From Psammoneis japonica (Eukaryota), in the NCBI GenBank assembly GCA_008632985.1, contig QPGO01000067.1, positions 124,001 through 154,948 of the forward strand: 30,948 nucleotides of DNA. Reading direction: 5' to 3'. Numbering within the stretch: position 1 is the first letter of the stretch; each line of letters opens with the position of its first letter. The translations under genes and the position numbers were made by a program. Below, piece after piece: positions 1,198 through 30,756 of this stretch. The notes beneath the pieces are model-generated. The model was not told the DNA's origin, ran no database searches, and saw nothing but the letters and a program-made list of their open reading frames with translations.

Positions 1198-1831
1198 GGT
1201 ACAATCGATTGTTTGTTTTGGTTGCTGTCTCGAGAAAATGAGAACTGCGAATGGCCTCGAGCAAACGCCGCAGCAAGACAATACCAGATGTACCTGTACC
1301 TACTGTATCATAGGATTCGGATCTGGAAGGACCACAAAAGATCGTGAGAACGCAAATACTGGATACTACTTGTTGACACTTCGTCGCAGACGCGCGGGAA
1401 TCTCGTTTGAAATTTCACATGTTTAGGCCAAAAGTGGCCTTTTGAGGCTGTTTTGGGGCTATTGGATACGTCAGCTCAGTTTAGGTAACAAGAGCTCCAG
1501 GCCTAAGAGAGGCTAAGTTTCACCGATGTTTTGACGGTGAGTACTAGTAGAGAGCTAGTAGTAGAGTCGCACCGTAGATCCAATCAATTGTGTTCATCAA
1601 GAGCATGATTGGTGCCGATCTTTCGGTTTCAGGGCCTGGTAAAGCCTCATGACGCTCCGGTAGCTTCAGAACAAGGGACTGACGGCCATTTTCGCACGAT
1701 TCAGTCACGATGGAAGTGAGGAAAGGGACCGGAGTTACCCGCACAACGTAGTTCAGAGCGAAAGAATTGAAAAGACATCACCGAGCATCCATCATTTCCC
1801 GATTAGAGAGCAAATCGTTGCCGGCTTGACA

Positions 1832-2449
1832 ATGAATAACCCGTGCAAACAGATTTTCATTATGGTCACTCTCCTTGCGATCCGCGTTGCGCCTGCCGAG
1901 GTGTGCAATTCCAATGCTGACTGTTCCAATGGGGGTGCATGCGAATCTTTTGATTTCGCCTCTGGAGGTCACCCTGCCATTGAGGCAAAGTGTAAATGCC
2001 AAATGGGCTTTTGGGGCGAACGGTGCGAGAAAACATGCCCCTTGCGGTGCGAGAATGGCGGTCAGTGCGAGCTCGAATCGGATCTTCACGGGAATTTGTC
2101 CGAAGCGTCTGATTTTGTCTGTGAATGTCCAAAATCCTTTCAAGGTCCACTCTGTAAGGACCTTAAAAATGACAAGGGGGAGTCTTCGCCCGCAGCGGCT
2201 CCAACACCAAACACAAACGACAGCAGTTCCAGCTCACCCTTGTCCGCCGGGGCTGTTGCTGCGATTGTGGTCGGCAGCATCGTCCTAGTGGCACTGTTTG
2301 TATTTGGTGTAGCCTTGAGAATTTATAGAAGTCGCAATGCAGAAACACAGAAAGGACGTGAGGAGACGGATGAAGCGGTCCTTCCACATGACGAGGGAGC
2401 TGCTCAAGAAGACGACACGTCATCTTTTAAAGATGAACCTATAGCGTAG
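1832..2449 (+). CDS. EGF-like domain single-pass membrane protein
   Basis: Signal peptide, two EGF-type Cys patterns (CSNGGAC...CKCQMGFWGERC and CENGGQC...CECPKSFQGPLC), a Ser/Pro linker, a TM helix AVAAIVVGSIVLVALFVFGVAL and an acidic tail. First ATG at 1832. Confidence 0.85.
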   Translation: MNNPCKQIFIMVTLLAIRVAPAEVCNSNADCSNGGACESFDFASGGHPAIEAKCKCQMGFWGERCEKTCPLRCENGGQCELESDLHGNLSEASDFVCECPKSFQGPLCKDLKNDKGESSPAAAPTPNTNDSSSSSPLSAGAVAAIVVGSIVLVALFVFGVALRIYRSRNAETQKGREETDEAVLPHDEGAAQEDDTSSFKDEPIA

Positions 2450-2450
2450 G

Positions 2451-2821
2451 TTAGTGATAACGTTCAACAAAGAGTATGCTACAGATCGGATGAACCGCAC
2501 TTGGTCGCAAGTAGGCTGACAGGATGCTGAATTTGAGCGCGAAGCCTCCCGCCAAATTCACGGATCTAGCAGGGAAGACAAGAACAATGAGATGTCTAGA
2601 GGGTGCCGTACAATTGCGGTGTTGGTCGCCCTTTCCGCAAGCTCGTCTTGACAGACAATGACCATGCCCACAAACACATGAAACACTTCTTGTTAAACAT
2701 CATTTTCACCATTTTCAGTTGCAATGCCCCTCCCTGGTGCAGCACTGTAGAAGTGGAGCATTCACTGGTCACCTCTTGCACACGAAAAGCACTGTGAAAG
2801 TTCAGCACCATGCTCAACACA
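2451..2821 (+). repeat. Dispersed ~370-bp repeat, copy 1 (paralog at 20184-20551)
   Basis: Collinear shared blocks such as cgttcaacaa, atgctacagatcggatgaac, cacggatctag, ttgcggtgttggtcgcccttt, acctcttgca and tcagcaccatgctc, in direct orientation with small indels. Confidence 0.9.
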
Positions 2822-4820
2822 AGAAACCAGATGCAGCAAACCCAGCAGCGAGTTCACTTCTGGGAAGTGCCACGGTGATGCCTTCTTGACGTGCTCTTTG
2901 AGCAGCCATGTCTCAAATTCCAGCTGGAACCCACAGGGGATGAAGTGATTTTTGGACATGTCAATGAGTTGGATGGGGCAGAGGCAGCTGTCATGTGAGA
3001 GGGAGTCAGCAATCACATTCTGTTTTCCCAGAAATCACCAGCCAGAGTGTGTGCAATCTCCAGTGGGATGATGGCACTGTCATCATCAAAGTTTGACATC
3101 TGGATCTAGCCAACGGCTGATGTGCCATTGCCATCAGAGCCAGCAGCCCAACTCCACTTGAGGGAAGTCCAAATGAAGGTCCATGCAATGCATGGTCATT
3201 GTCAGGCAACAATGCAGCATGCCAAAAATTTCAGTGTGTTGAGGGCAGCATGATGGCACAAGTGAGGTGGCCGTTCCCAGCATCATCACAGGGCTGCAGA
3301 TGTGGCACAGAGTCTCCCACCAAGGCAGATTTGATTTGGAGCAAAGCATGACAGCACTCAGGCTGGTGCCACCTGGTGCTGCACAGTGGAGAAATGTCAA
3401 CCAGAGAAACAAGGCAGCACATTGAGCCAGGGACAGTGGTGCTGCACTGTGACATTGTTTTGAGCAGTGTGCAGAGCCTGCCAGAGGTGACTGAGGAAGT
3501 GATGTGTGTGTGGCAGGCATGACAAGTGCCATGTGGTTAAAGCATCTGACCAACTCCAGCTGGGGCTGGCTGGGCAAAAGCCATGCAAGGACAGTGTGGA
3601 TGTTGGAAGCTGTCCAGGCCACTGCTTTGTTGTGTGACAAGGTGGTGGACAAGTCACATGTGCTGAAAAGCCAGCCAAAAACTGCTTGTGCTTTGGCAGA
3701 GGGGTGGCTTCAACTGGAAATTTGGCAAGGGAAACAAAGAAAACCCTTCTGACAAATGGCCTTGAACTTGAACTGCAAAGCTGGTTGGCCAAGTGAGTGC
3801 AAGACAAATGGGATGACCATGCTGCCCTGACCACAGCTCTGCTCAAGAAAGGTGCTGAAGATGCTGTTGACAAAGCAGCCAAACTTGGGGAGATGAGTCA
3901 AGCAGAAGGAAGTGACAGCCCACTCATCAGTGGGAGAGAAGGCAATGTCAGCACTGTCTGGTGGCAGTGTGGAAGCTGCTAAGATCAATGTTTGGCAGAG
4001 AGAGACTTCAGTGCAAAATTTTGTGCTGGAGTTGCCACACAGAGCAACCTCACAATTTGGCTCATCCCCAAGAAAGGCTCCAAAATCTGGGAAAGATTGC
4101 AGCAAAACACCTGATGTGGGTCCAGCTGGGCTCTGCCTTGCCATCAAAAAAGACAGACCTGTTGAGCACATGTGGTGGCATTTCCAGTGGCAGCAACAGT
4201 CCTCTGGCTGGCTCTGGAACATGCATGACAACACACAAGACAAATGGCCTGCCTGACAACCATGTTTTCCATTGAAAAGACTTGGGTGGGCCCCAAGAAC
4301 AACCCAGTGGTTTGGTTTGCTGGGATCTGCAGCAAGAAGTCACAGAATCACACACAATGCAGTGGCAGCACCACCCTGCTTGCAAGGCGCACCCAGCAAA
4401 TGGAGCTGAGGAGGCCAAGAAGGTTGCACAACCACCATGGTGCAACAAGTTGTGCACAACTTGCCAACAAGACACTGGCTGATCTGGGGCCAAGTGGTGT
4501 CAAGACACATCTCCAAAATGCCTGCAATGTTGGCCTGAATCTTGTCCATCATGATCTGGGAGCAGGTGATGTTGAAGTTGCCCCCACTTTTGTTGCAGGA
4601 TTGCCTGCTCTCACCAAAGGCCCAATGCCTGGTCCAGCAGCTGGAGCTTTTTGAAGACAAGGGATTGCCAACTGCTTTGTTTGCAGGAAAGTTGGAGCAA
4701 CCAATCATTGGACCCCTGGAAGGGGTGTGGGATGACAGCCAAGAGCTGAGCAGACTGCCAAGCAGCAGCTTGCAAACATGGGAAAGAGCTCTCACTCATG
4801 GTTGGGGAACTGCTTCCTTG

Positions 4821-4821
4821 A

Positions 4822-4868
<47 letters not shown>
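4821..4868 (+). repeat. (AAAG)12 microsatellite
   Basis: Perfect tetranucleotide run read directly. Confidence 0.97.
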
Positions 4869-4869
<1 letters not shown>

Positions 4870-7800
4870 GAAAAAGGCACACAGCTTGCATCAAACTGAA
4901 AAGGCAAAAGAAACAACTTGCCCTGCCTCAAAGAAAACCCCAGTCATTTTGAGTCATGTCAGTGACAGCTGGCATCATTCAGAGGAGCTTTCACTGGTGA
5001 GGAACCAGCAGAAGAACAAACCAACTGCTTCTTCTGATGAGGAGACCCTGATGGTCTTTGACTCACAAAGCTGTTGGAGCTGCACAAAGGGATGCATGGC
5101 CCAACAGGAGCTCTGTTTGTGTGCACATCTGGCATGTTTTGTTCTTTCCACATCCTGCTCAGAGAACAAAGCATTCATGTCATGGATTCATGTCATGGTG
5201 TCAAAGCCAACAGTCTTTTTCTGGATGCACCAAATCAGCAGGATCAAGAGCTGCACACATGACCAAATGATGAGGCAACACATTTGCAAAAGCCTTGTTT
5301 CACATGATCAGGCATGTTGACACCTGAACAACTTGTCAATTGGCAGTGCTCAAGCAGCAGCCAGCAAAGAAGTCACAATGAGAACAGGATTCCAAGTGCC
5401 TCAAAAGAACAAGAAGAAGGAGGCTGTCCAAGTGCTGGGTCATTGAAGTCAATGAGGGGAGGCTGTCCTTCACTCATTGGGGCCCATCTCCAAAGGTGGT
5501 GCTGCAGGATGTGCAGAGCCATTGCTTCCAACTGCAGCATGGCCAGCCACAGATGACCTGCAAACTTGATGAGAGCAGAAATGTGGGCCACCACCTGCAA
5601 AGCCAAGGATGACTTCTAAGCACAAAGCATGCACAAGCATGCTTCAAACACAAAAGCATTGAGTTTGGGCCAGCTTGCAGCAAAGGTTCAGTGCCCATCA
5701 CAAAGAAGAGCAGACACCTCCACTGGAGACAAAGCTTTTTTGAAGGAACAAAAGCAACTTCCAACTGCTGAGTGGAGGTTGCAGAGCAGCCTTCAACCCA
5801 GGAACACGTCAAACCCAGAAAAAGCACACACATGCAGATGCTTCTAGAGAAGACATGTGGAGCTTCTCCATGCAGAAACTGCCAATGTGCAGTTGCACCA
5901 AAAAGTGGGCATGTCAGTTGCAAGAATGTGGGGGATGAGGCACAAACAGAGAGGTGACTGTGCCATGAAGCCACACTGGGAGCCTGTGTTGCTGACCCAT
6001 TGGATGGAGCTTCAATTGTCCCTCCTCAGCATGGGAGCCTGTGTGGTGCAGGGATGAGCAGGGGCCATTTGCCACCAGCCTGCAGCAGAAATTTGTTCAA
6101 AATGTTTGTTGCATGGGCTGTGGGAGTCCAACAAACTTGGAGCAGTGGCGCCATCAAGCACAGGTGGAGGAGGTGGGTGTGCATTCATGGAGTCACAACT
6201 GGGATGCAAATTGACTCACCTGAGAGCCATTTGGTCCCCACCTCAAGGCATGTGCAGAGTGGGAAGAACCTGGTTTCCAAGCAAGCAGTGCCCAGCACAT
6301 CACAAGCAGCAGTGTCCATGTTTTCTTTTCACCACACACACCATTGCTGTTGACTTGGCCCTGTGCCAAGATGCAGAAAGGACTGCAGCAGAGACATGTG
6401 ACAGGCAATGAGCTGATGGGCTGCATGAGAGCTGGGTCCATGTGCCAGTCAACTGGGCTGGAGCTGGGGCATTGAAATTCACTCTTCTGGGATCAGGCAA
6501 CCCAGTTTGCCAAATTTTTCATGTCGGGGTGGTTGAGACAGGGTAATTTGTGTGACTGTCATTCTGGCTGCAGTTTGCACAACAAGGTCCAGCAAAGAAT
6601 TGTCTGGCACAGACCACTGAACCAAAAAGTTTGGGGCAGTCTCTGACACAGCACATGGTTTTCCTTGCACTGTGAGTCAGGTGTTGCTGTGCCTCAGTCA
6701 TGTGATCATTCTTGACTGTAGGACAGGAGTTTGTTTGGCTTTTTGGCGTGCTGTGGCTTTGCCCTTTGCCTGCTCAGTTTGACGATGCTTGATGCATTCC
6801 AGCTGCAGATGGGACTCTGTGTGGTGCTGGGCCTGCAGAGTTGTGCAGTGCATCAGCTCTGCAGTGAAGCTAGGGGCAACTTTGTGCTTGTTCAAGCTCC
6901 TCCATGCTTGAAGCACATGCCATTTCTTTTGCCTGGCTGCACTCTGCAGATGTTGAAGAGCACAACCAGCCAATTCTTGTTGTTGGAAATGGCTGCAACA
7001 AAAAGCCTTTGGCTTTGCAAGCAGAGAGTTTGAGGCCATTTTGCAATGGAGCACATGTGGAAATGCATCACATGATTTGACAATGTTCATGCTGCAGCCC
7101 AGCAGTGAAAGGTCCCACCCAGAGCTGGGGAGTGTGTCATGCATCTGCCAGGCTTCCTGGTGAACTGGCCAAGGTGAGGGTGGGCATCACAGCCGAAGCT
7201 GGTGCACTGCAGTGCACAAGAAAGGAGTTGCCTTGTTTGTTGCCCAGGTGGTGTTTCATGCCCTCTGAGAGGTCATTTGGCAGGTGAGAGGGGCTGAAAT
7301 GAACACCAGCAATTTTCTTTGCCAAAGACAATGAGATCTTGATTGTGAAGCATGGGTGACCCAACTGCTTGTGCATGTCTTGGACCCTCACATGTCATCT
7401 CATCTAGATGGCTCTCTGGGTGGCTCTCTTTTGGGCCTGAGCAATGGCTGTGTGAACATGTGGCAAGTTTTGTTGATGGGCTGCTTGGCAACATGACATG
7501 AGCTTCTGCAAGCAGTTTGCACTGAAGTGGCCACTTGGTGAGAAGTTTGTTTTGTGGCACTGGTGCTCCTGCACCCCTGCAGCTGGGTTGCTGCTCCTCC
7601 TTGGTTTGCTGCAGCAGCTGACAAGGAAAGCAGAAACAGGGGTGCTGCAAGGCAGCCACTGTCTTTGTCCTTTCAAGCTGTCTGCTTTTTGTCATCATGC
7701 AAAAGCCACAAAGAACAGCTGTGCTGGTCACAGCTTGCAAGCATTTGATGGTTCTGGAAGGAGGTGAGTCAGGCAGCCATCCATGAGTGGGCAGACATGA

Positions 7801-8929
7801 GCTGGTCAACAGCCCTTGCATCATCTCCTGTTCTGCAGGAGCACAGTTGTTGAAGAACTTCTCATTTGTCAGCATGTGCAGCCCCCCCCCCCTCCTTTTG
7901 AATTGCTGCCCATCATTGCAAACCACAACAGCACTGATGGATCAAATTTTAACCCATCAAAGCTCAAAACATGCCAGCATTGTTGACTGTCCCATCTCAA
8001 TGGCCCTCTTCCATCAAATGGCTACAAAAATTTAGCATCTGCTTTCTCACAAAGTGAAGAGTGAGCTGACAAGTTGATGTTGAATCCAGTGGTGCATGTG
8101 ACATTGACATGACAGTGTCTGACAAATTGTCTCGGTCATGGTTTCATGTCAATGCACAAAAACACTTTTTGAAAAGATGTGATGGCTTGACATTGCTGAT
8201 CAGACCCCACTGGTTGCTGCACACAATGAATTGAAAGAGCCACAGTCAGGGGCAGCTGTTCCCAAGTCCAACATTGGATGTTGAAATCACTTCCATGTCA
8301 ATGACAAGACAATCAATGGTTTTTCCAAGCCTTGGTGCCAAGCATCAAGAATTTGAGATGAACGTTCAAGAACTCACAATGATGGGAGCTTGCACACTTC
8401 AAAGAAAACATTGACATGAACATGAGGCAGAAGGCATCAAATGTTCCCCAGAGTTGGCAACCAGTTGCATGATTGGTGACACCTGTGCAGCTTGGGTGAT
8501 CCTCTCTCTCAGAAGCCAAAGAAGTGAACATGGCACAGCAGTGACATTTAGATTCTTGCTCGAACTGTTGTCAATCGAGAAAATTCATGGTGAATCCTGT
8601 GGTTGACAATGTCACAGTTTGTTGTGCAAAAAGCTTGAGAGACTTTGCAGCACACCTGCATCACTTTTATCCTTGGACAAGGGGGGGGGGCACACCCCTT
8701 GTGCATGACAGCTGCACCAGAATTCCTTTGCATGTTGCTTGGTGTCAAAAAGCATGCACCAAATCTTTGAGGCACCAAAGAAGTCAAAACCCATCCACTC
8801 AAGTTGCAAACGCTCATCGCATTGGTCATGCAACTGTGAAATGGACAGGCATGGACAGCCACACCCCTGCTCATGTGATGAAAATGCAAATGCATTGTGC
8901 ACATGTGAGAGGACAAAAAGGCCAAGGTT

Positions 8930-11137
8930 GTTGGCTGCCACCCAGACGGGAAACATTTGCCGTCTGGGCATCCAGCACAATTTGGGGCACAGTCTTCATG
9001 ACATGCAAATTCAGAGCAACAACAGCAACTGGCAATGCATCCACCAGAGCAGCTTGGGCTGGGACAGTCTGCTGTCATGGCACACTGGACGACATCAGAC
9101 TTCCAGCCAAAAAAGCAGCATTCACCATCAATGCATCTGTCGAAATGGCCATCAGACTTTGGGTCATGCTGCTCACACTGCCTGTCACTTGTGCATGGCA
9201 GCTTGCAAATGTTGTGGGTGCACTTCACGGGAGCTTCTTCACATTCCCCTTGAATTTCTCCAGTGCACTTCCAGTCGCAAGGCACACATGGCATGCACTC
9301 AATGTGCTCTGAACATCCCCCCCGTGCAACATCCTCACCTTGCATGCAGATGTTGCAGAATCGCAAAACGCTTGTTCATCAGACATGCAATGATCATTGT
9401 GATCACATCTTCCTGTGCAGGTCTTGTTGATGCACTGGGGCAATCATGACAGTCAGTGCATCATCTTGATTTGGAAGGTAAAACTTGCTTGTGCTCTGCA
9501 CCTTTGTTGGACAATCATCTTCCTCAAACTTTAGCATGTGAGTCACACTGCATTCAGACTTCCCCTGACCAGGAAAAGTCATGCTGTTTGTCAGATTGAA
9601 CTCTGTGTCGACACATGACTCGTTGTCCAAACCTTTAAATGAGCCCTTACTTGCTCCAATTGTGCGAGACTCTCCCTCAGCATTGACTTGTTTCCGACCA
9701 TCTGGAAACAATGTCGTTGCAACTACAAACCAACCCTGTTCTTGCCATAAGAATTTAGAGACGATTTTGCAGGTTCCAGTGTCATCTGGCCTCAACTTGC
9801 CTTTCAGAGTTTCATTCTTCTTATCTGTGGTCTCTCTCTCACTGACAGGGGTCTGTCCACATTTGTCAAGAGGGGTTTCAGTGTCGAGTCTGTAGAAATG
9901 TGACTCCACTTTGCTGACGTGAGTGGTTTTTGCTGTGTTTGCAGCAGTGCACTCAATTTTCTACAAGGACGAGCTTTTTGCAAGGGCAGAGGCATTGTTC
10001 CGCTGCAGCAATGTTGTCATTGACTTCTTGAATTGCCACAATCGAATGTCAGAGCTCCTCTCTGACAAAAGGATCATTGTCACTGTGGCAGAGTCTAGCC
10101 GAAGCAGGAAGACAAACCATCTGCAACAAAAGAGCTTGAGCAAGAGTTCCAGCAAACCAGCGTTTGCAGCTCCGGTGCTGCACCGGGTCAGCGTTGTCCA
10201 TGAATGTGTCAAGCACACAGTTTTCATGCTTTGCACCATGCTGACACACTCCAGTTTCGCGTCCGCTTGTCTTGTCATTGTTTGCAAACTTGCATCTCTT
10301 GGGACAGGAAGAGCTGTCACCGCACGCACATCCACACAACATCCGGATGAGATCTTGGGGACGATTCTGCAGCTGGTTGCAGACAAAAGGAAAGTCATCA
10401 CTGCAGAGCTCGGCAAGCAACTTTAACTCAGGATCAGGTGCACCACCTTGATCCACAGAATCAAGGAGAAAGCAAATGGAGCATTCACAGGCTGCGCATC
10501 CAGAGCAGACGTGGTCCAACTGAATCCTGATGTCGTCCAACACGTTGTCATTGATCACATCCTCTGTGTTTCAAAACTGACTTGCTGTCTGCGTGGCCAT
10601 CTCATCAAGCTTGGCATTCAGCTTGCTGAACTCCTCCTTGATGAGCACTTGCGTTGGGTCCATAGATTCACGCCCTGGAAATGGAGAAGCCAGGGACAAA
10701 GCAGGTCCGAGAACACTGCTTGCGGCTGCCAAACCCTTCACCAGATTACCCAGATCTGCAAAGACATTGGCAGCATCCAAGATGGCATCAAAAACAGTGC
10801 CGTAACTTGCAAGAAGAACTGAGGCCTGATCGGTCAATTTGTGCTTGGTGAGAGACTTGGAACAGATCATTTCTCCTCCGTCGCACACTGGATCACTGGG
10901 GCTTAAAGGGAATCCTCTTGAGTCCACCACACACAGGGGGACAAGGTCATCACTGTCTGGATCATTGCTTTTCTCGCCTTTCTTCAAGGCGCGGGTTTCC
11001 TCAAAACAATTGCTGGTGAGGAGGGGTCTGGAACAAGCATCCACAACATCCATCCTTGAGCCACAAACATTCCCAGCAAGGACAGCTCATGGGAGGAGGA
11101 GTGCCAGGGCAGGAAGCACCAAGATGGAGATTTTCAT
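8930..11137 (-). pseudogene. Decayed large secreted protein gene: signal peptide, cephalotoxin/rapunzel-like helical segment, Cys-rich C-terminal repeats
   Basis: ATG at 11137 gives MKISILVLPALALLLP*AVLAG (TGA probably from CGA). It continues through ORFs 10571-11053, 10049-10558, 9403-9909, 9225-9443 and 8548-9366 with stops and frameshifts. Contains LGPALSLASPF..DPTQVLIKEEFSKLNAKLD and repeated C-x3-C / C-xDGxC units. The 3' end is approximate. Confidence 0.65.
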
Positions 11138-12605
11138 TTTGTGAGAGCATGCATTGGGTTCAGTTTGTTCATGCCAGAAAGAAGCAATGAAACAAAAGTT
11201 GACAATGCAGGATGGATGATGGAGTTTGGGCTGCCCCGACAACCGGGTTTGCATTGACAAATGCAATTCCAGCCTCTGCCGGCAGTTGAGTTTCGTTCCA
11301 TGCATTGACAGCCCACAAGATCCCTTTGGCTTTGCATCAACGATGATGTTTTTGCTTTCATCCACTTTGCGATGTGCAACAATCTGATGTGCACTTTGAT
11401 CCACATCATTTTCATTCTCACCTTTTTGTGTGTGTGTTCGGACAAGGTTTGGACGCGACTCTCTGAACAAAAATCATGCAAACCACCACATCACATGGAT
11501 TGATTGCAGAATGTTCCAAAGAAAGGCATGAGTGAAAAAGACAGAAAAACATGCCGAAGGCATGGTTTGGCAGAAAATTCCTCGCACATGTGCAAAATGT
11601 CACGTTTGCATCAACAAACTACACACACCATGCACTGCACCTGCTTCCTGCCTCACTTGACGTTAAAGGGCACACGAGCACACTGCTGCTAGAGCCTGGA
11701 GAGTGGACCACTCCTCTCCACTGGCAGCAGAGCTCTGGCACTTGCAGGGCCCTGCATCATCATGCCTGCCGCAGTGCATTCCTTGTGTCTGTGCGTGAGT
11801 CATCGTCAGCGCTTCTGCATGCACTGCATTGCAAGCCCCAAAACCCGCACTGCGGCATTTGCTGGCTCTGTCTAATCCAAAGATTTGAGCATTGTGATGA
11901 CCCCCCAAACTTGCTCCTTTCCCCCTTTCCTCTTTTTGTTGCATGCCCAAGCAGCAACAGATGCCATGCCCATCACCACCTCCCCGCGCACTTTGTTGCA
12001 AGACATCTTGCAGCTTGTTCCACAAGGCGCGGCTTGAGAAGGTTTGTGCACCAATGCCAATGCACTGCCTCTTTCAAAGATGTTGCACAATTCAGTGGAT
12101 GCTGCCATCAATGCTGCAGGTGCAGTTTCAGTCATGCCGCTGTTGTCAACAACAGCTGCTGTGAGCCTTTTGCCGTGGAGCACCAAATTGTGCACCCTCC
12201 AAAAAGGAATGGATGTGCTCGACTCAAACCCTTTGCAAGGGTGGCCAGATTTCTTGGCACAAAACAGGCTGCTGGGAATGTCCGCAATGTCAAACAAGCC
12301 AGGGCAGCCCTTGATTCCTTGACCATGGCAACAAGCCCACATCAGATGGCCTGGTGGACAAAAAACGCAGCTTTTCAGAAGCCTTGGCAGCTGGGTTGCC
12401 CAACTCTCTAGATGAGCCTGGTCAGACAAAGATTTCACATCATGTCTGACCACACTGACTCACCTGGAGAGCTCCTTTGACCAAAAGGACTTTGGCTGAC
12501 ACATGAAGTGTTGTCAACAGTGTGGCAAAGAAGCTGTTCTCAGCACACTCTTCCAACCCCCCAGCATGACAAAACATGCACAGCTTCTTCTTTTTGGGGT
12601 CATCA

Positions 12606-13019
12606 AAAATGACTGTCTTTGAGAGTCAACACCAATCCAGCGTTGAGGTGTGCAATTTTTTCCATTTGCTCCACAAGCCGTGATGGATTAAAGCCCATGT
12701 CTGGCTTGCCATTTTCTCCCTTGAACACCTCAACATCTGGCTTGAATGTTGCAGAAGTTCCTGTTTTCCTCTTTGACTGCAACTTCTGGACAAGTTTGAG
12801 CTTGGAGTGCACCAAGTCATCATTGAGCAATGTCCGTGTCATCGGTGGCTGATGATGGCTTGCCTGAAGGGTGCTTTTCAAGTGTGCCCCCACTCAAATT
12901 TCATGTGACACATTTCTGTCCCCCTTGCAATCCACACAGTCATGTCTGCAAAAGCACTCAAGGCATTCACTGCTGATGCACTCACTCCATGCAAACCACC
13001 AGACACTTTGTGACCATCA
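12606..13019 (-). pseudogene. gyrB: DNA gyrase subunit B ATPase-domain exon fragment (nuclear, organelle-type), degenerate
   Basis: DGHKVSGGLHGVSASAVNALS matches GYKVSGGLHGVGVSVVNALS. KTGTSATFKPD..F and IAHLNAGL match LAYLNxG. Frameshift near 12890. Preceded by a pyrimidine tract and CAG acceptor (13020-13037). Confidence 0.88.
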
Positions 13020-13727
13020 CTGCCAAACAAAGAGAATTGTCTCTGACAAGGAAGGTGGTGCATTTTGTGGTCATTGACCAAACACCTCATTGTTGTCCCA
13101 GAAAACTCTCCAAGGAGGTGTGGGTGGCTTTTGTGGAATGCTTGAAAAATCACCTGGGTGTTGTGGTCTTGCCAAGGTCAAAGAGGAAACACTGTGGCTT
13201 TGAATTTGTGAGGACATCAGAGATGAAAACAAATGAGGGCTGGCAACACTGCATTTCTTCCAATGGCTCCAGCACAATGCCAAAAAATGAAGAACATCCA
13301 ACACAGGTGTTTGTGCAAATGTGGATTTTTTGCAAGAGTCATTGAGTGCATTTTGGCATCAATGTTTGATTTATTTGAAGGTGTGGCAATGTGCCAGCTT
13401 GGCACTGTTGCCAAAGAAGGAGTTGCCACAACTGCTGCAGAAAAAGTGCACATTGTGACATCTTGACCCAGCCTCTGCTCAATGCAAAATGGAAGCTTTT
13501 GATGCATCTGACGGTGCTCTTTGCTCCTGTCATCACAAAGGTGCCATGGCTGTTGTTGTTTGCCCTCCTTCAGCACAGCAAGTCAAGAGCTTCCACACTG
13601 GACATGCATCAGGCAAGTGCAGAAACTGCTCATCTTGTGCAGTGTGCAGTGCCAAATCTCAGACAACAAACTGGCAGGCAAGCACCAGCAACCACATTTC
13701 AACAACTGTCCAAAACATTGGGAGAAG

Positions 13728-13918
13728 TCTCCAGCCAGCTGCTGGCTGAAGAATCTTGAGCAGAATTTGCACTGAAAGAGTCTGTCAATCTGTGTGTTGA
13801 GGTTTTTTTGGTGAATGCTGGATGGACTCAATGTCTTTTGCGTACGTAAAAATTGTGCTGACAAACCCCCCAAATGCGCTGACAAGCAGACTTTTTTTAG
13901 CCAGCAGCTGGCTGGAGA
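13728..13918. repeat. Inverted pair of identical 20-bp arms (13728-13747 and 13899-13918), each containing the palindrome AGCCAGC-W-GCTGGCT
   Basis: tctccagccagctgctggct is the reverse complement of agccagcagctggctggaga. Confidence 0.8.
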
Positions 13919-15840
13919 GACTTCCACAAGACAGGGCACTCAACATGTGCACTGCAAAACATCCCAGCTGCTCCCCTGATCCTCAAGGGGTGGCATGATG
14001 AGGGCACATAAAACTTGAACCCACACATGGTGCAAAAGAAATCAGAGGCCTGCTGGAGCATTTTGCAAGGACTGTCAGCCCATGTTTCTCTGTTGAAAAA
14101 GTTGCAGTGTCATTTGCCTCACATTGTCATTTGGTGGGCAAAAATCACTGTGCTGAAATGCAACAGGAGGCTCACCTTGCCACTGGCTCTGGCATTTTAA
14201 CATTGGCAGATCACACTCAGAATGCTTGGCACCCAAGTTTAATCCATGGATTCAAGGCAACTGCCACAGCAATGGCCAAGCCATGCCAACAAAAGGGCAA
14301 GTGTGAAAAGTGAGTTTGTGGACAACAAAGGTCAGAAAACATGTTGCTGTCATCTTTTGCACCAGCCTCATGTCAAGACTGCACCACCACACATTTTCAT
14401 TTGAAATCATTTTTGCTTGATTAAAGCCAGTGGCCTGCTGTGTCAAAATGGAAAACAGCTCATGATGATCTGGGACAGTGCAAATGGCTGTGCTGCCAAA
14501 TGGCTCTGCAGCTGGTTGACACCACACTTTCCATCTGTGCAGAGTGCCAGGTTTGTTTTGACTGTGCTGTGCACACTCTGACCACAAATGATTTTTTTTT
14601 ATTTTCTTGTGAACTTCATTGTGATGAGCCAAACAAAGCTGAGATGCCTTCATCTCCCATCTTGTGACATTGCTTCACACCATTTTGCATTGACCAAGTG
14701 CAGCAAGACCAGCTGTGTCATGCCTGGGACGGGCCAGCTGTTTGGTGCGACAGTTGAGAAAGCCATTGCAAGTCTGTGATCACTCTGCTAGCACAAGTCA
14801 GCACTGGTGCTGGCAAAGATTTGCACTTGCAGAGGATGAAAAGGCTCTTGAAGTGTGCTGGTTGGCTCTCAAGGAGTGTTGTCTTCATTTGCAGATGAGC
14901 TTGCCAGCTTCATCTCAGCACTGCCAGGTTGAGCAGCAGATCTTTCACCTGATGCTGAGACTTTTTCTGAAAAAACTCTTTTGCAACAGCAAGCTTTTCA
15001 GCTGTGCTCACCACCTGGTTGGCTCCAGATGTTGCAAAAGCAAGCAAACCTGACATGCAGCTCTGCACTTCTGTCAATGCCCGCACTTCACAACAAGCAC
15101 TCTTCAAGGTTCTCTGTTGCAGCTGCCCCTCCCCCCTCCAAGTTGTTCACTTGCTGCATCTGTTGTGATTGACTGACAAGAAGGCCCCTGCTTGGGCCAG
15201 CTTGTCCTTGGCTTCTGCGCAGCAATGCAGAGATGCCACTTCTCCTCATGTGACCCCCCCGTTGATGCTTTGCCTTTTTTGTCAGCCATTCTGGCTGTGT
15301 GGCAGCTGCAGTGCTCTTCTTGCCAGACCTGCTCTTTTTGCCCTGGTGGGAGCAGAAAGTGCCTTGTGAACTCCTGCAGCAGAGTGCTGGTGGCATCTTT
15401 TGCCAACACCCTCTTCTTTCTTCTTCTTCTTGTTTGGGTGACCAAGGTGCTTCTTTTTGCAGAAGAAGTCTCAGTCATGAACAAGAGCTTTGCTTTCTTT
15501 GCATCTTCCTGCTTTTTTTTGGGGGGGGGGTTCGATTTTTGAAAGAGAGCACGCGGGATGTCCCTTGTTGGCAACCTGCTTGTCTTGCACCGTGCAGAGG
15601 CGCCATTGGCCATGGGGAAACATGAAACATCTCGAGGGAAAAAAATGACATCATGATGGAATTTCGGAATCGAAAATGATTTTTCCTGGCCAGCGCGGGA
15701 TGAGATCTTTCAAAAGGGCGGGAAAATAGAACATTGAAAATTTTCAGCTCTGAATTTCTGCATGGCAAGGCGCCGAAAATCTTTTGAAAAAATGACGGCG
15801 ACAGCACCCAGCACAGAAAGTTGATGAAATAGAAAGTGCA

Positions 15841-18800
15841 ATGGCGTCTCGTTCAACGCATCCTTCTCCTCAAGCCATGACAAAGACGGAAGACATCGAT
15901 GACCACTTTAAAGACGCAGTGACAACTCCAAAACAGGAGGAGAACTATTCCTGCATAATTGAACCCGGTGACGTTGTGTGGGCATTGAACGGAAACAGAA
16001 ATGAGGCTCACGAAGCGACCGTATTGAAAGTGGATGTAACCAACAATGTCGCACAAGTCAAGTGGCAGAGATCTCTCTACAAGGACATGGTACCGTTAGA
16101 TCAGATCCGACCCATGTTTGATCTTGCCGAGGTCAGTGGCGATAATACGAAGAATTCTTCAAGACGAACAAGACGCAAGTCTGGTCGAGTACTTGGACTG
16201 AAACAGTTTATTCAACGAAGAATCGCCATGTTGTTTGGTGGCCACGTCTATTTTGGGACAGTCACAGAATGTCGCGAAGGAGAAGATGGGGAAGAAACGT
16301 TGTGGCATGTCAAGTATGACGATGGCGATGCCGAAGATATGAATCGTCAAGAACTGGATGCAGCCTTGGAGTTGTACGAGTTGCGAAGGCACACGGAGTC
16401 GCCCTTACTCAAGGAAGATGGCAGTCAAGCCTTGTTGAAGCAAGACACGTCAGACGACGCTACTACAAGTATTTCGCCCGACAAAACCAAGTCAAAGCGC
16501 ATAAACAACACCGACCGTCCAACACCGAGTACCAACCGATGGTATGCCATGAGGCAAAGACGATTCAAGAAAAGAAGAAAGCTCATGTCGAATCATCAAC
16601 GTCCATCCTCTCAAGGTCTAGAGGATAATCATGACGATTCGTCACGCCGTCCGGGCTTGGTGCCACGGGTGTCTCTGTCTCCTGACCATGTTGATCACGA
16701 AGACGAGGATGCTGACCCCAACGTTGAAGGATCATGCACCACGTTCAAGGATCCGTTCGAATTTTCGGATGATAATGACGATTCTTCACGCCGTCCGGTT
16801 TTGGTGAAACGGGTGTCTCTGTCTCCTGACCATGCTAAACAAGATGACGAGGATGCTGACGACTCCAACGTTGAAGTTGATCCGTTCGAATTTCAGGATG
16901 ATACCGTCAGTGTTTCGGATTGTTCTTGTCATGAAGTTAATAGCGACAATTGTGATTTCTCTGATGAGGTATCTTCCACAAGCCGTGACTGTGAGTCGTC
17001 TTTTGAGTGTGACTCTTGTTGCAGCAGCAGTGACGTGTCATTTGACGGATACGAGGAGGAAGAGGAGGAGGAAGAAGAGGAGGATTCATCATTGTTGCAA
17101 GATGCTTTACTACCTTCTCCAGAGGAACAGCAGAGAATCTTGGACTCGATCGAGTCTCCGAGTGACAAGACTTTGCAATCTCTTCTTTGGTCCCTTGGTT
17201 TTAGCTTTACTCTGTTGCCCCATCAATTTGAGGGGGTGCGAGCGGTTGCGGGTGTTTCCAACACCTTTCCCTTGAACGATGCCGCCGCCGCCACCGCTGA
17301 AGATTACTTTAATTCTTCTACGGACCCCACCACAATTCTCAAAAATTATAACCCCACCGATGAGACTAGTACTCGGGGGATACTACTAGCGGATAGCATG
17401 GGCCTTGGAAAAACCGTTCAAGTGAGTACGACGTTTGCTGTATTCGTGATGTTTTTTGGTCTTCTACTCGTTTCTATTCACACTCATTGTTTGTGTGTCA
17501 AAGTCAATCGGTGGTGCTATACTTCGGAACAAGCTGTGCGAAGCACAAGGAAAGGAGGGTCTACCAACTGTTATTGTGGCTCCCAATGAAAACGTACTGA
17601 CGCAATGGGGGGAAACACTTCTAAATGCTGGTGTGAGTTCCGAGAAAATTTTCTATTTCAGACCCAGAAAACATTGTGGGTTTGACGGGCCGAACTTTAT
17701 CCTCATGACACGGTACAATCTCCAGGGTGAAACCAAGGCTTTGATGGAGAGAATTACCGATAGAGACAAGGGCAACCAAAGCTTGGTGTCGTCGAAGCTT
17801 TTCCCATATGCAACCAAAGATTTACTTTACAAAATGAAGAACCAATACGAGTAGGACCAACATCTTCTGCAAGCGTTGATTTGCTGTACGTTGCGCTAAC
17901 TCTCTCTTTGTTTTATGATATATCAGATCATTTGTCGGGAAAGCTAGGAATCAACTCAAGTTGCGCGATGAAAAAGAAGTGGCCGATGTTGTTGTCTCTC
18001 GGCTTCTCCTTCCGTTTGTAAACAGAGATACACTCCAACAAGTGTTTCGTACTGTTCTTATCGACGAAGCTCACTTTCTCCGGAGCATTTGCTCATATTG
18101 GGGCTTGGGCGCAGCCATGATGGGTCTTCACGGGGAACGTGTTGTACCCCTTACTGGCACGCCATACAACAACGGGCCCAAGGATATGGCGGCTTTAATG
18201 ACGTTTATCGACCCATCCAAGCCTGCTGCCAAAACACTTTGGTGGGCGAATGCTACAAAGTTGGGAACGCCAGCCGACATTGTTCAATCCGTCGGGGAAT
18301 GGAGAACGCATTACATGTTACGACGAGGAAAAGATGTGCTAAAGAAGCAGCTTCCTGATAAGAAGGTTTTCTCCATACCAGTGTCCTCGTATCCAGCTGA
18401 GCTGTATGTGTACAACTATTTCGAACAACAAATGTTAGAAAAGTTGGCTGAGTTTGGTAAACACGATTCATCGGAAATCATCATTCTAAGAAACCTATTC
18501 AAATCAATGCTTGCAACGTTGTCGTGTCAGCGAATGGCCTTAATCCACCCGATGCTTCCTGGTGGACGAGAGATGACAAAAATGTTCTCACCATCTCGCC
18601 GAAAAATGGTCAAAATGGAAGAACGGCCGTGTGTCTGTGTGTGCTGTACTCCAGTGTCCCGTCCTTCTGTACCATTACAGAGAAAAAGTGAGACAGGGGC
18701 ATCAAAACAGAGTCTACCAAACAAGGAATTGCGACTTTGTTACAATATGGACCTAGATGATTCAGATTTGGACGATGGCGGAGAGGAGGAAGTCTACGGT

Positions 18801-20028
18801 GCAACTTGCGAGGAAGACGAATTAGTGCCTCTCTGCGTTGAGGAGAGGTGCGACAGCACCGTTCCTCACTATGCACACAGGAAGTGTCGAGACGAATTGC
18901 GAAGGGATAAACAGCAGTGCCCACGATGTGAGTCGCTTGTGATGCAGATCTGGCATATTGCTTGCCATCATCCACCTTTCCGCTTCTTGCTACAGTGAAC
19001 CTCATATTTCTTGTGCTCGTTGTTCGCCGTACCCCTGCAGGCGTGGATATGAAAAGGAGAGTCCACAACATGACCAACAATAATGAAGACGGTTCTGCTC
19101 CTTTTGTCTCCCAGCGCACTACTTATTGCCAGCATGTCAGTGTATCCCCATCAATGCCCGGTGGCTTCAAAGCATCCGCAAAGATCGAAAGTGTGATCAA
19201 TTGGTTTCGATGCGTTCCGACGGATGAGAAGGTAAATAATACAACAATGTGTGTTGATAGCAGATCTAGGCTCAGCGTCGTCTAACAGCGAGTCTTGCAT
19301 TACGTTTGATACAGGCGATCATTCTGAGCTTTTTCAAAGGTGGGCTAGACTTGATTGAGGGTATTTTGGTAGAGCATCTAGAGGTAGGCTGTGCTAGGTA
19401 AGAATCCGTGTCTCCATTGCAATCATACTTCAACATATGCGACGTACGTGCACTAAAGCCTTCGTCGGAAATGACAATCGCGTCTCTTAGGTTCGATGGT
19501 GATGTGAACGCAAAAGTCAGGGCACAGGAGCTACAAAGGTTCAAGACAAACGCTGATTGTCGCGTACTACTCGCAAGCGTTCAATGTGGGGGTACCGGGT
19601 TGAATATCGTCGAAGCAAATAATGTGTGCTTCGTAGATAGATGGTTTAATCCTTGTGTGCACGAGCAGGCCATGGATCGTTGTCATCGCATCAAACAGCA
19701 AAAGGAAGTAAAGGTTGTATTTCATGACTGTTCAAAGACTGTCGATCAAGTCATGTCGCAGATCAACAAAATCAAGTCCGAAAACGCCTCTATTGTTCTC
19801 GCGGACGGCACTGCACTAGGCCAAACTACGGGAGGAATTAAGTTCAAAGATATGAATGGTATGATTGGGAGTTTGCTCCGAGAGGTTAGAACGCAAAGGA
19901 TGGAATCGCCAAATGATCAGCCGCTGAGCCAAGCGAATCTAGATGACATGGAAACGGAAGAGAAACGAATGGAGAAAGAATTAGCTAAGGCTATCAAAAA
20001 AGCCAGAATGCGCGTCGGATCAAGCTAA
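15841..20028 (+). CDS. SNF2-family ATPase (Rad5/Rad16-like with a Cys/His RING-like insert) with two N-terminal Tudor-like domains; 6 exons, ~1246 aa
   Basis: Exons 15841-17421, 17504-17850, 17927-18927, 19041-19231, 19315-19397 and 19491-20028. All introns are GT-AG (76-113 nt) and the frame is preserved (3741 nt). Motifs LLPHQFEGV, GILLADSMGLGKT, LIDEAH, LTGTPYNN, MLRR, SAKI, FDG, GGTGLN, DRWFNP and QAMDRCHRIKQ. Tudor-like segments PGDVVWA..VKW and YFGTV..WHVKYDDGDAED. Confidence 0.92.
16624..16901 (+). repeat. Intragenic tandem duplication (~145 bp, ~47 aa unit) in SNF2 exon 1
   Basis: DDSSRRPGLVPRVSLSPDH...DPFEFSD is followed by DDSSRRPVLVKRVSLSPDH...DPFEFQD. Confidence 0.9.
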
Positions 20029-20183
20029 GAAAATAAAAATAAAGCAGACGTAGCCACAGTGGGTTTTGTTTCATCACAATCGCATTTGGTTTGGCACACA
20101 CAATTTCGCATGCAAGCTTGGTTGGGAAGGCTTTGTCCTCCTGCAGCATGCTGTTGCAGTCGGCCTCATTTTCTTCCATGGAC

Positions 20184-20551
20184 TTGGTGATGGCGTTCAA
20201 CAAGGAGCATGCTACAGATCGGATGAACAGGCACTTCGTCGCGACTAGGATGGCGGAATGCTGAATATCCCGCCAAACTCACGGATCTAGTAGGAAGAAC
20301 AAGAACGATGAGATATCTAGAGGTTGCCGCAGGCTTGCGGTGTTGGTCGCCCTTTCAGCGAGCAAGTCTTGAGATTGAATAGACAGCGACAATGCCCTCA
20401 AGTACACTCTAATTAACATCGTTTTCACTATTTTTAAGCAATTTCTTCCGGCAAACTACGTAGCGGTAATGCACATGGTAGTATTCATTGGTTACCTCTT
20501 GCATACGTAGAGTACTGTTCTAGTTCAGCACTCAGCACCATGCTCGACACA
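20184..20551 (+). repeat. Dispersed ~370-bp repeat, copy 2 (paralog at 2451-2821)
   Basis: Collinear with 2451-2821. Its right part retains TA and CG sites that copy 1 has lost. Confidence 0.9.
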
Positions 20552-20598
20552 TCCAATTATGGTCCACATTTCCGCAGCCTACATACCATATTTAAATG

Positions 20599-21315
20599 CT
20601 ATGTCTGTTTAGCCTTCTTAGAGGGTGGCTCGTGTGTTGCGCCTACCTCGTCTTTCTCCTTCGCGGTCTTCTGCTCCTTGTCGTCTTTTGAAGTATCAAC
20701 CTTACAAAGCAACACGAATCTGTCGGTGTTTACGTTGGGCTCCTTCCATGCGCTTGCCTTATAATCATCCTCTGGAAATGAAAACATGTCGCTTTCCTTG
20801 TCGACTATGAATCCACTTTCGGCCAGCTCTTCTCGAACAAGAGCTTCTTCGATTCGGTGAAGGTTTTTCGTGTCCGACGACCCACTTTTTGGTGCAGCCC
20901 GATGATCTACAATCAAAAACCGTCCCTCAGGCTTCAATGCGGTTTTAATCGAAGCAAAGAATTTGTTTCGATCGACAGACATGTCATAAAGGTCGTGAAA
21001 CGAATTCTGAATGGTAATCAAGTCGTACTCGTTGGAAGCAGAATCTGATGGATTTTCAAAGGAGGACCAAAAGTGGTGCATCTTGTAATCTCGTTCCAAC
21101 GAATCAATCACTTTCTGGATACCAAATGACTCGAATAATTCACGAAATTCACTCCCATTCTGCACGTCCACAACTTGGTTCGTCGTACCAGCAATGTGCT
21201 TGGCAAGGTATCCAAATCCACAAGAAACATCCAAGACTCTGTCACTTTCGGACAATCCAGCGAACTTTAACAGTTCAGCGGGTTTACGAAAGGCATCTTT
21301 CGAATCGTTGCACAT
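20599..21315 (-). CDS. Class I SAM-dependent methyltransferase, COG4798-like (238 aa, intronless)
   Basis: First ATG at 21315 (MCNDSKDAF). Motifs RKPAELLKFAGL, VLDVSCGFGY, HDLY, LKPEGRFLIVDH, LHRIEE and TDRFVL. Confidence 0.85.
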   Translation of the reverse strand: MCNDSKDAFRKPAELLKFAGLSESDRVLDVSCGFGYLAKHIAGTTNQVVDVQNGSEFRELFESFGIQKVIDSLERDYKMHHFWSSFENPSDSASNEYDLITIQNSFHDLYDMSVDRNKFFASIKTALKPEGRFLIVDHRAAPKSGSSDTKNLHRIEEALVREELAESGFIVDKESDMFSFPEDDYKASAWKEPNVNTDRFVLLCKVDTSKDDKEQKTAKEKDEVGATHEPPSKKAKQT

Positions 21316-21638
21316 TGTTGGTGTATTTATGGAATAGAAAAGTACGATCTTTGGAACAAATAATGAGACGAACGAACTTGAACTTCGATGAAGGCTTGGC
21401 GTGTCGGAGGGAAGTTTCGAGGTTGCACCAAGCAACGCGCGAAGAAGCACATCGAACAAACGCTCTGTCCGTCCACCGAAAACGGGAGACGTACGGACAG
21501 CACTGACTCACAGTTGCGTTCAATTTTTGCCGCCGACCGCCGACACATCAACACGCAAACCTCATTTTTCTAACCGAGTGATGATTCATCACTCACACAA
21601 GACAACAACGACTCTTGTGCAACTATCGAAGGAATCAC

Positions 21639-22796: not shown

Positions 22797-22937
22797 GATT
22801 GTCCCTTGGTACGCACTTTGCTATCAAGACAAAGCTATCTAATAGGTTAGAAATCATCGTTTGATCAACTCTGCTGCCGTCATGAATATTTTCGAGAGTA
22901 TGAAGCCCCCTTGCAACAATACCAAAGCACAAAGATA

Positions 22938-25253: not shown

Positions 25254-25533
25254 TATTCCGGTGTGGTGGTCGGTCAGAGACTCAGGGCGATAGGAAGGAC
25301 TATCGTTCAGTGTCAGTAGCAATAAGCACAGGCCGAAGACTTTGTTGTTTCTGCTGCTGTTTGTTCGGAAAGTGCAACAGCAGCGGAGTTGTGTCGGGTG
25401 TCGGTGTCGCTCGGCACCAAGATCTCGAAATCGAATCGCGAGCTGTTTTGCAGTGTTTGCATTTTGCATGCATGTCTGAGCGTCTGCCCATCTCGTCTAT
25501 TTTTTTGGCGCGCGGTCGGTCGCTGGCTGCGTT

Positions 25534-25689
25534 GACTCCAACGATTGACGTCACCGTGGACATGATTTTTTGATAAATACAAATTATTTTAAAGTCTGAA
25601 TAAATTTATTTTTCACGTTTTGAAATACTTAGGTGAGTTTTGAGTTTGTTCTGACTTCAACCCGCGTGGCGAAGGTTGTCAGCCTTCAC
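25534..25689. repeat. 156-bp direct repeat, copy A
   Basis: Identical base for base to 30601-30756. AT-rich, with TGACGTCA at 25546-25553. Confidence 0.97.
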
Positions 25690-27900: not shown

Positions 27901-27903
27901 ATT

Positions 27904-30343: not shown

Positions 30344-30600
30344 GACAAGGGAGACTAAAAAGAAGAGTGCTTTTCCGAGCTTGAGTGATCCAGTCACGAT
30401 GATCAGGGTTCCTGTTCCAACAAAGCTGGAAAAGTGAGAGAAAAGAAAACCGAAGTTTGACCGGTCACAGTCAGAAGACTAGACCGAGTCATCTTGAGTC
30501 GGAAGTACCCTACTTCCGTCGCGGATCCAGCGAGAGGTCATAGTCATCGAGCGAGGTCGGTTTGAGTCAGTCCGTCTCCATCTAAACTTGGGTACGAGGA

Positions 30601-30756
30601 GACTCCAACGATTGACGTCACCGTGGACATGATTTTTTGATAAATACAAATTATTTTAAAGTCTGAATAAATTTATTTTTCACGTTTTGAAATACTTAGG
30701 TGAGTTTTGAGTTTGTTCTGACTTCAACCCGCGTGGCGAAGGTTGTCAGCCTTCAC
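30601..30756. repeat. 156-bp direct repeat, copy B
   Basis: Identical to 25534-25689. Confidence 0.97.

Follow-up and report, generated by a model that had tools for sequence, protein, structure and literature searches.

Two copies of a repeat, one of them crossing the edge of a TA- and CG-depleted domain in Psammoneis japonica, suggest region-restricted mutation

Within a 30,948-nt stretch of Psammoneis japonica DNA (contig QPGO01000067.1 of assembly GCA_008632985.1, positions 124,001 to 154,948; hereafter the window, in whose own numbering all positions are given), two direct copies of one repeat differ in a manner that probably reflects a mutator confined to one region, turning TpA into CpA or TpG, together with a separable decay of CpG, both set by position and not by homology between the copies. 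The right part of copy 1 lies inside a domain from which TA and CG dinucleotides have nearly disappeared, its left part lies outside, and the body of copy 2 stands in ordinary DNA (Table 1). The pair constitutes a natural before-and-after control, which reveals the likely direction of change and its tie to the domain, an edge placed within about 60 bases and a preference for T-A-pyrimidine.

A repeat pair with one copy straddling the edge of a TA- and CG-depleted domain

Alignment of 2451-2821 with 20184-20551 outlined a real repeat of about 78% identity, with several indels and identical blocks of 20 nt and 22 nt. Exactly two occurrences of the 22-mer were counted in the window and 0 in 100 shuffles, and homology stops sharply at both ends of the repeat, with none detected past either of them. 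The repeat pair is not an assembly quirk: copy 1 was recovered with its own flanks in an independent contig build of run X1, at a depth of 59.4 versus 60.1 at the copy-2 locus. The window may itself derive from this run, which is therefore not an independent sample. A previous reading of this DNA, made from the sequence alone, had listed eleven pairs of differing sites between the copies, all of which are present. They comprise seven sites with TA in copy 2 and CA or TG in copy 1 (written copy 2/copy 1: ctagTAgg/ctagCAgg at 2570, gaTAtct/gaTGtct at 2594, cacTAt/cacCAt at 2710, gTAttc/gCAttc at 2759, gtTAcc/gtCAcc at 2770, gcaTAcg/gcaCAcg at 2781 and agTAct/agCAct at 2790), two with CG in copy 2 and CA in copy 1 (aacgat/aacaat at 2586 and ctcgac/ctcaac at 2816) and, at the left end, two at which copy 1 holds the TA (tTAgtg in copy 1 and tTGgtg in copy 2 at 2453; gagTAt and gagCAt at 2475).

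The two copies show 68 mismatches over 2451-2821, divided into 28 transversions and 40 transitions. Eleven transitions present TA in copy 2 and CA (ten) or TG (one) in copy 1, and eight present CG in copy 2 and again CA (seven) or TG (one) in copy 1. The opposite arrangement is seen at five sites for TA (2453, 2459, 2475, 2609 and 2748) and at none for CG, and the other 16 transitions belong to neither class. Counted from copy 2, the 20 TAs that align without a gap are kept in copy 1 in 4 cases, read CA/TG in 11 and differ by transversion in 5, and the 19 CGs are kept in 9 cases, read CA/TG in 8 and are otherwise different in 2.

The asymmetry lies to the right of position 2560, where copy-2 TA or CG faces CA/TG in copy 1 at 17 sites and the opposite holds at 2 (binomial p 0.0007). 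In 2451-2559, two copy-2 CGs read CA in copy 1 and three copy-1 TAs read TG or CA in copy 2. A test for enrichment of transitions in the TA context gave a clear result: in 2560-2821 they affect 11 of the 39 bases in copy-2 TAs versus 13 of 186 other bases (Fisher p 0.0005), and 6 of the 25 bases in copy-2 CGs versus the same 13 of 186 (Fisher p 0.014). With a conservative set of sites, defined by at least 12 identical columns among the 16 flanking ones, the polarity is 12 to 1 (p 0.003); 4 of the 11 TA sites (2652, 2675, 2743 and 2790) fall under this cut-off.

The onset of this asymmetry coincides with the edge of the depleted domain. A sliding dinucleotide count places the left start of TA and CG loss at about 2560-2650 and the right end at about 15530, and the domain occupies the whole gap between the stop codon of an open reading frame (ORF) with EGF domains (2449) and the start of an SNF2-type gene (15841). 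The 12,881 nt of 2650-15530 contain 48 TA, 110 CG, 1494 CA and 1443 TG, the corresponding counts in 12,652 nt of flanking sequence being 432, 738, 881 and 984, with a CA+TG total of 2937 in the domain versus 1865 in the flanks. Expressed as observed/expected ratios (o/e), the domain presents 0.06 for TA, 0.14 for CG, 1.82 for CA and 1.83 for TG, and the flanks 0.52-0.54 for TA, about 1.0 for CG and about 1.2 for CA and TG. The remaining dinucleotides of the domain shift far less (o/e 0.81-1.30), and its G+C content is approximately 50%.

A context rule shared by the domain and the repeat

The TAs that survive in the domain follow a rule based on their flanking bases (Y, pyrimidine; R, purine). 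Counts in the domain and in the flanks are, respectively, 27 and 80 for YTAR, 10 and 109 for RTAR, 10 and 108 for YTAY, and 1 and 135 for RTAY. Counted per strand by the base following the A, they amount to 42 and 178 for TAA, 32 and 199 for TAG, 15 and 261 for TAC, and 7 and 226 for TAT. These counts fit a model of independent hits on each strand that proceed about 4.5 times faster if a pyrimidine follows the A, and the survivors are enriched for the palindromes CTAG (8 of 48) and TTAA (11 of 48).

The same rule is apparent in the repeat pair. The only in-domain TAs common to both copies are CTAG at 2567, CTAG at 2597 and TTAA at 2694, all of them YTAR, and the repeat sites divide into 3 kept and 1 converted for YTAR and 0 kept and 10 converted for all other contexts (Fisher p 0.011). 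Since the repeat pair and the domain carry the same context fingerprint, it appears that copy 1 lost its TAs through the process that operated on the domain.

Direction of change and its tie to position

The sequence-only reading had proposed that mutation follows local position and not the sequence family. The asymmetry, the context rule, the composition of the two copies and the unmutated body of copy 2 all bear this out, and the direction of change is inferred from the two copies. Very probably, TA and CG were lost from copy 1 rather than gained in copy 2. Copy 1 keeps all three copy-2 TAs that lie to the left of 2570; of those to the right it keeps 2, and 11 are converted (Fisher p 0.018, a value computed on the identical 3/0, 2/11 polarity table). 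The onset of the 17 to 2 asymmetry falls between 2512 and 2570, at the start of the TA- and CG-free domain; for changes in copy 2 there would be no cause to respect a boundary that lies 17.7 kb off, which favours change in copy 1.

Composition is consistent with this direction. The density of CA+TG per 100 nt is 13.7-14.4 in copy 2 and 13.7 in the pooled non-coding flank, and it reaches 21.0 in the in-domain part of copy 1 and 22.8 in the domain. From 20214 on, copy 2 presents 6.2 TA, 5.4 CG and 14.4 CA+TG per 100 nt and resembles ordinary non-coding flank. Homology was rejected as the trigger, since the body of copy 2 belongs to the same family and is unmutated.

Several observations weigh against this interpretation. 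The numbers are small, with 19 directional sites, and the ancestral state of each site is reconstructed from two copies, not observed in an outgroup. In the right part of copy 2, TA is abundant, at 7.4 per 100 nt versus 4.8 in the pooled non-coding flank (Poisson p 0.04), and its indices for repeat-induced point mutation (RIP) are borderline, at 1.18 for TpA/ApT and 1.03 for (CpA+TpG)/(ApC+GpT), so that some gain of TA in copy 2 may have taken place. Two YTAY sites, 2710 and 2770, became CA where the context rule favours TG. Lastly, six-frame Pfam searches returned no transposon or viral protein signature in the domain that might mark it for mutation.

The left end of the repeat and the patch over copy 2

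The sequence-only reading had further claimed that polarity flips at the left end of the repeat, where copy 2 would lie in a TA-free patch of its own. The site pairs on which it drew are present, as noted above, and a TA-free patch rich in CA/TG does cover the start of copy 2; the flip itself is not established, resting as it does on three sites (TAs at 2452, 2458 and 2475), two of which run against the context rule. The CA+TG count of the patch equals the density of the domain and compares with a maximum of 36, a mean of 23.6 and a standard deviation of 3.5 in sampled 160-nt windows of the flanks. These values are suggestive of a small mutated patch of the domain kind over the start of copy 2, a reading to which we give roughly an even chance.

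A competing account, to which we assign slightly less than an even chance, is that the left-end sites are ordinary G:C-to-A:T mutations in copy 1 and not the result of hypermutation in copy 2. All five differences in 2451-2495 present A or T in copy 1 and G or C in copy 2, including two that are not at TA (2460 and 2471). One of the rule-breaking sites is a protected YTAR and the other an RTAR with TG where CA is favoured, and TA-free gaps of at least 159 nt occur four times in the 10 kb of flank between 15800 and 26000. This account leaves the composition of the patch itself to be reckoned with, 0 TA and 37 CA+TG in 160 nt being above every flank window sampled.

Alternative explanations for the asymmetry

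RIP, a process of ascomycete fungi that requires a RID-type cytosine methyltransferase and a sexual cycle, converts C:G to T:A, mostly CpA to TpA, and enriches TpA; its thresholds and length requirements are taken here from general background. A RIP-like process would imply that the ancestral repeat carried CA/TG at the sites in question and that copy 2 gained TA through C-to-T changes at CpA. Besides the TA excess of the right part of copy 2 and its two indices at the RIP thresholds, this is favoured by the plus-strand reading of the 11 TA differences, ten of which are C/T. The CG sites are one-sided too (8 to 0), which such a gain of TA leaves unaccounted for, because RIP makes no CpG. The RIP-like account also provides no reason for changes in copy 2 to stop where copy 1, 17.7 kb off, leaves the domain, nor for all 3 TAs shared inside the domain to be YTAR, a context that accounts for 80 of 432 TAs in the background (chance 0.006). 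The ancestor would need some 20.7 CA+TG per 100 nt, versus 13.7 in the non-coding background, and the non-repeat DNA adjoining copy 2 (20552-20700) is just as TA-rich as the copy, with 10 TA in 149 nt. Taken together, these points make a RIP-like origin of the asymmetry very unlikely.

RIP as a system does share several traits with the process envisaged here, in that it is transition-only and dinucleotide-specific, ruins non-genic or repeated DNA and generates a strong skew with sharp regional limits. Its chemistry is the opposite, enriching TA where TA is here erased, and the organism here is not a fungus. With a TpA/ApT ratio of 0.07 for the domain and of 0.38 for the part of copy 1 inside it, neither shows a RIP-type TpA excess by the thresholds in general use; only the right part of copy 2, at 1.18, is borderline. 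RIP is described as mutating both copies of a duplication (PMC2621366); here only the in-domain part of one copy is changed, with 17 sites versus 2, and copy 2 has background composition from 20214 on.

Selection or constraint offers another account, in which the domain avoids TA and CG as targets of nucleases, transposases or binding factors and copy 1 was purged of them on entering it. The nearly complete depletion, its sharp edges and the abundance of CTAG and TTAA among the survivors are in its favour. Pfam six-frame and Rfam searches, on the other hand, detected no coding or RNA function in the domain. TA and CG are invariably replaced by their transition product, CA/TG, and this is doubled while other dinucleotides remain within o/e 0.81-1.30, a mutational signature. 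A TpA-to-TpG/CpA spectrum has, moreover, been reported to arise as new mutations without selection in lines of Bigelowiella natans (10.64898/2026.01.13.699255), and we regard a selective origin as highly improbable. Ordinary neutral divergence, through chance and normal CpG hypermutability, is next to negligible: even though the copies are old, with 44 of 68 mismatches not of the TA or CG type, and TA to CA/TG differences run both ways (11 and 5) in a small sample, it is opposed by the polarity from 2560 on (17 to 2, p 0.0007), the enrichment of transitions at TA (p 0.0005), a CG o/e of about 1.0 that indicates no general CpG decay in the flanks, and an adjoining 12.9 kb with 48 TAs versus 432 in the flanks.

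Edges of the domain and separability of TA and CG loss

The left edge of TA loss can be placed within about 60 nt, since GTAG is kept at 2512 (as is GTAT at 2475), both of them susceptible contexts, and conversion is seen from 2570. CG loss sets in more gradually there: CGs kept and lost in copy 1 number 5 and 2 in 2451-2559, 4 and 2 in 2560-2650, and 1 and 4 in 2651-2821. TA conversion reaches further out than CG loss at this edge, where CG is kept up to 2644. At the right edge, CG density is normal from 15533, TA is rare until about 15830 and CA+TG is not raised.

TA loss and CG loss are separable within the window. The interval 10001-11000 keeps 31 CG and only 6 TA, and belongs to a sub-domain (8500-12500) in which part of the CG is kept and TA is erased. 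The patch at 20054-20213, with 4 CG and no TA, is a further instance. A second TA-poor segment at 25690-30600 has a TA o/e of 0.15, with 21 of its 34 surviving TAs in YTAR context, a CG o/e of 0.81 and a G+C content of 0.57. It is flanked by 100% identical 156-nt direct repeats (25534-25689 and 30601-30756), which are AT-rich and undepleted, each of them carrying 8 TA in all contexts. In Pfam searches at E up to 1, the four long, overlapping ORFs of 25932-30397 had matches below threshold only, and because a change of TA to CA/TG never creates a sense-frame stop, open frames in 25690-30600 are no evidence of function. Inside the domain, a 480-nt island (9479-9962) keeps 10 TAs (11 by 500-nt bins), several of them in YTAY or RTAR contexts, and may be of younger age or have had less exposure.

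A post-hoc observation concerns strand. In 2560-2821, CA appears on the plus strand in 10 of 11 TA changes and in 7 of 8 CG changes, which amounts to A-to-G and C-to-T on the minus strand (p 0.005 for TA under a strand-symmetric context model; one-sided p 0.035 for CG). Across the domain, no clustering of CA and TG by strand was detected, the runs test giving z +1.5 and bin overdispersion being no higher than in control pairs or flanks. In 2560-3500, RCAY and RTGY number 28 and 32, without bias, and the comparison of RCAR with YTGY is confounded by a purine-rich plus strand. A single strand-directed diatom deaminase might remove both A (in TpA) and C or 5-methylcytosine (in CpG) in marked chromatin domains, acting on one strand only at the edge, although we consider this rather unlikely. 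The minus strand, running 5' to 3' out of the domain, would in that case be hit as single-stranded DNA arising from outward transcription or resection.

Proposed mechanism and comparison with known systems

Under the mechanism that we favour, the two segments would be old paralogous copies of one 370-bp sequence. After their separation, the DNA to the right of about 2560 would have become part of a 13-kb silent, gene-free domain, in which a process would turn TpA into CpA or TpG, by A:T-to-G:C change at the A of 5'-TA-3' on either strand, and CpG would decay to TpG or CpA. Only the in-domain part of copy 1 would have been converted, with copy 2 keeping the ancestral TA and CG, perhaps save for its first 30 nt. 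The trigger would be position, in the form of a chromatin or domain state, and not homology between the copies. By analogy with described systems, the chemistry may be enzymatic deamination of adenine in DNA, with inosine read as G; the loss of CpG could correspond to deamination of 5-methylcytosine, and the domain may be heterochromatin. Any candidate enzyme must reproduce the T-A-pyrimidine preference.

Methylation-driven CpG decay proceeds by deamination of 5-methylcytosine and turns CG into TG or CA, without removing TA. A CG o/e of 0.14 in the domain beside genes at about 1.0, and the 8 versus 0 CG sites of the repeat, are in keeping with it; it leaves the loss of TA, which is separable from that of CG, unexplained. 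ADAR enzymes carry out A-to-I hyperediting of double-stranded RNA, with a 5' U/T preference and with A edited in several contexts. A-to-G changes with such a preference are common to both, but ADAR acts on RNA and in several contexts, whereas the changes seen here are fixed in genomic DNA and transitions outside TA and CG remain at background (13 of 186). ADAR-type hyperediting through an RNA copy was rejected in view of this background level and of the absence of domain-wide strand clustering.

Our literature search found no description of TpA-targeted A:T-to-G:C DNA mutation in diatoms; the one description found in print is a 2026 preprint on B. natans. According to its main text, A:T-to-G:C changes in mutation-accumulation lines were restricted to TpA sites within two integrated viral regions (10.64898/2026.01.13.699255), the targets being integrated giant-virus and virophage DNA (10.64898/2026.01.13.699255). 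The authors (Mettrop et al.) propose an ADAT2-type DNA adenine deaminase with a role in genome defence (10.64898/2026.01.13.699255), and ADAT2-type enzymes that deaminate A and C in DNA are cited there (10.64898/2026.01.13.699255). As described in that text, the two cases have in common the change of TpA to TpG or CpA on either strand, its restriction to discrete regions while the rest mutates normally, and a composition low in TpA and high in CpA+TpG.

They also differ in several respects. B. natans is a chlorarachniophyte and the organism considered here a diatom. TA depletion approaches saturation here (o/e 0.06), as opposed to a Rho of 0.45 reported for the nucleocytoplasmic large DNA virus (NCLDV) region of B. 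natans (10.64898/2026.01.13.699255), and CpG loss is joined to TA loss, where the term CpG does not appear in the main text of the preprint (10.64898/2026.01.13.699255). Six-frame Pfam searches detected no viral or transposon protein in the target here, unlike the viral targets described for B. natans. An edge resolved to about 60 nt and a 3'-pyrimidine preference are found here, the main text of the preprint being silent on flanking context and boundaries (10.64898/2026.01.13.699255). Finally, the evidence here is a fossil signature alone, whereas new mutations were measured in B. natans (10.64898/2026.01.13.699255). The sharp edge, the two-copy control, the local strand bias (17 CA to 2 TG) and the loss of TA without loss of CG are new here. 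If an adenine deaminase indeed acts on chromatin-marked DNA, it would represent a second, chemically opposite eukaryotic genome-defence mutator, and a natural A-to-G DNA editor.

Search for further copies and nature of the repeat

A transition-blind purine/pyrimidine scan of the window detected no third copy (best score 67 versus 68-78 in shuffled nulls), and no look-alike of copy 2 was found in the other DNA windows scanned. Searches of contigs from runs X1-X3 with 19900-20800 at a likeness of at least 80% returned nothing beyond the query locus and two fragments of copy 1, bearing in mind that contigs show presence and not absence and that copies below 80% likeness are missed. Run X1 contributes 141 Mb of contigs, and 99% of the sampled words of 15800-25700 are present in it; no RNA run was listed as carrying sequence of this interval. 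A scan of a viral contig collection gave 0 matches. The one metagenome match to a degenerate version of the 22-mer falls in a bacterial gene that resembles the repeat nowhere outside the seed. Seven matches in bacterial metagenome-assembled genomes from a genome contig collection were rejected as further copies; three of them, of 35-38 nt at about 82%, cover the last stretch of an ORF for a small bacterial membrane protein and need a 2-nt gap, which points to chance.

With regard to a solo long terminal repeat (LTR) or a miniature inverted-repeat transposable element (MITE), copy 2 begins near TG and ends in CA, but no target-site duplication was seen at either copy on reading the sequences, and only two copies were found. 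Rfam searches of 20000-20650 at E up to 1 returned nothing, and RNAalifold analysis of the left 210 nt of the repeat yielded a fold without convincing support. Both copies contain a short inverted repeat, TCTAG(C/T)A ... T(G/A)TCTAGA, at 2565-2601 and 20286-20322. In it, the site of the lone TA-to-TG change (2594) is paired with that of a TA-to-CA change at 2570, so that the stem remains complementary; such compensation, observed in two sequences, may be chance.

Content of the domain

Six-frame Pfam searches of 2600-15700 gave nothing above threshold, with a single sub-threshold match (FOXO_KIX_bdg, E 0.0014). Over the whole window, Rfam at gathering thresholds identified no family and a tRNA search found none. 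The domain has no internal repeats of note, and no look-alike of 3600-15500 was found in the other DNA windows scanned. Stop-to-stop ORFs of 209-291 aa are present at 3710-4339, 7273-7941, 8545-9449 and 11536-12411, a number of which show an evident abundance of Cys and His, and in 8545-9449 three ORFs overlap in different frames. An atlas look-up of a 275-aa Cys-rich ORF returned no match. These long ORFs are by-products of TA loss, which removes TAA and TAG, and of the excess of CA/TG. Domains of this kind carry long, stop-free Cys/His-rich ORFs that are not genes and by which gene callers could be misled. The domain also contains a perfect (GAAA)12.5 microsatellite at 4820-4869.

Genomic setting

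Table 1. Coordinates of the repeat copies, the depleted regions and the neighbouring genes in the window
Feature	Position	Strand	Description
EGF-domain ORF	1826-2449		EGF Pfam matches; stop codon at 2449
Copy 1	2451-2821	+	starts 2 nt past the stop of the EGF-domain ORF; left 110 nt unmutated, right 260 nt in the domain
Copy 1, part outside the domain	2451-2559	+	TAs at 2452, 2458, 2475, 2480 and 2512
Copy 1, part inside the domain	2560-2821	+	11 TAs and 6 CGs of copy 2 read CA/TG
Hypermutated domain	about 2560-15530	.	12.9 kb; TA and CG nearly erased, CA/TG doubled
Right edge zone	15531-15830		TA o/e 0.09, CG o/e 0.97, CA+TG 0.155
SNF2-family helicase gene	15841-20028		start at 15841, directly beside the hypermutated domain; stop at 20028
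Patch	20054-20213	.	160 nt; 0 TA, 4 CG kept, 37 CA+TG; overlaps the first 30 nt of copy 2
Copy 2	20184-20551	+	between the 3' ends of the SNF2-type gene and the methyltransferase gene
Methyltransferase gene	20599-21459	-	

Pfam searches of the ORFs in the window identified EGF, SNF2/helicase, TAF4-like, methyltransferase and epimerase/DUF1731 domains. Every named homologue of the epimerase ORF comes from a diatom, Seminavis, Mayamaea, Amphora and Attheya being represented, with best identities of 65-71%, and the window looks like diatom nuclear DNA. The SNF2-type gene is spread over three ORFs, a split that probably reflects introns, and carries an N-terminal PTM/DIR17-like Tudor domain. It also contains a 94-nt repeat, at 16623-16716 and 16767-16860, whose two units present 87% identity.

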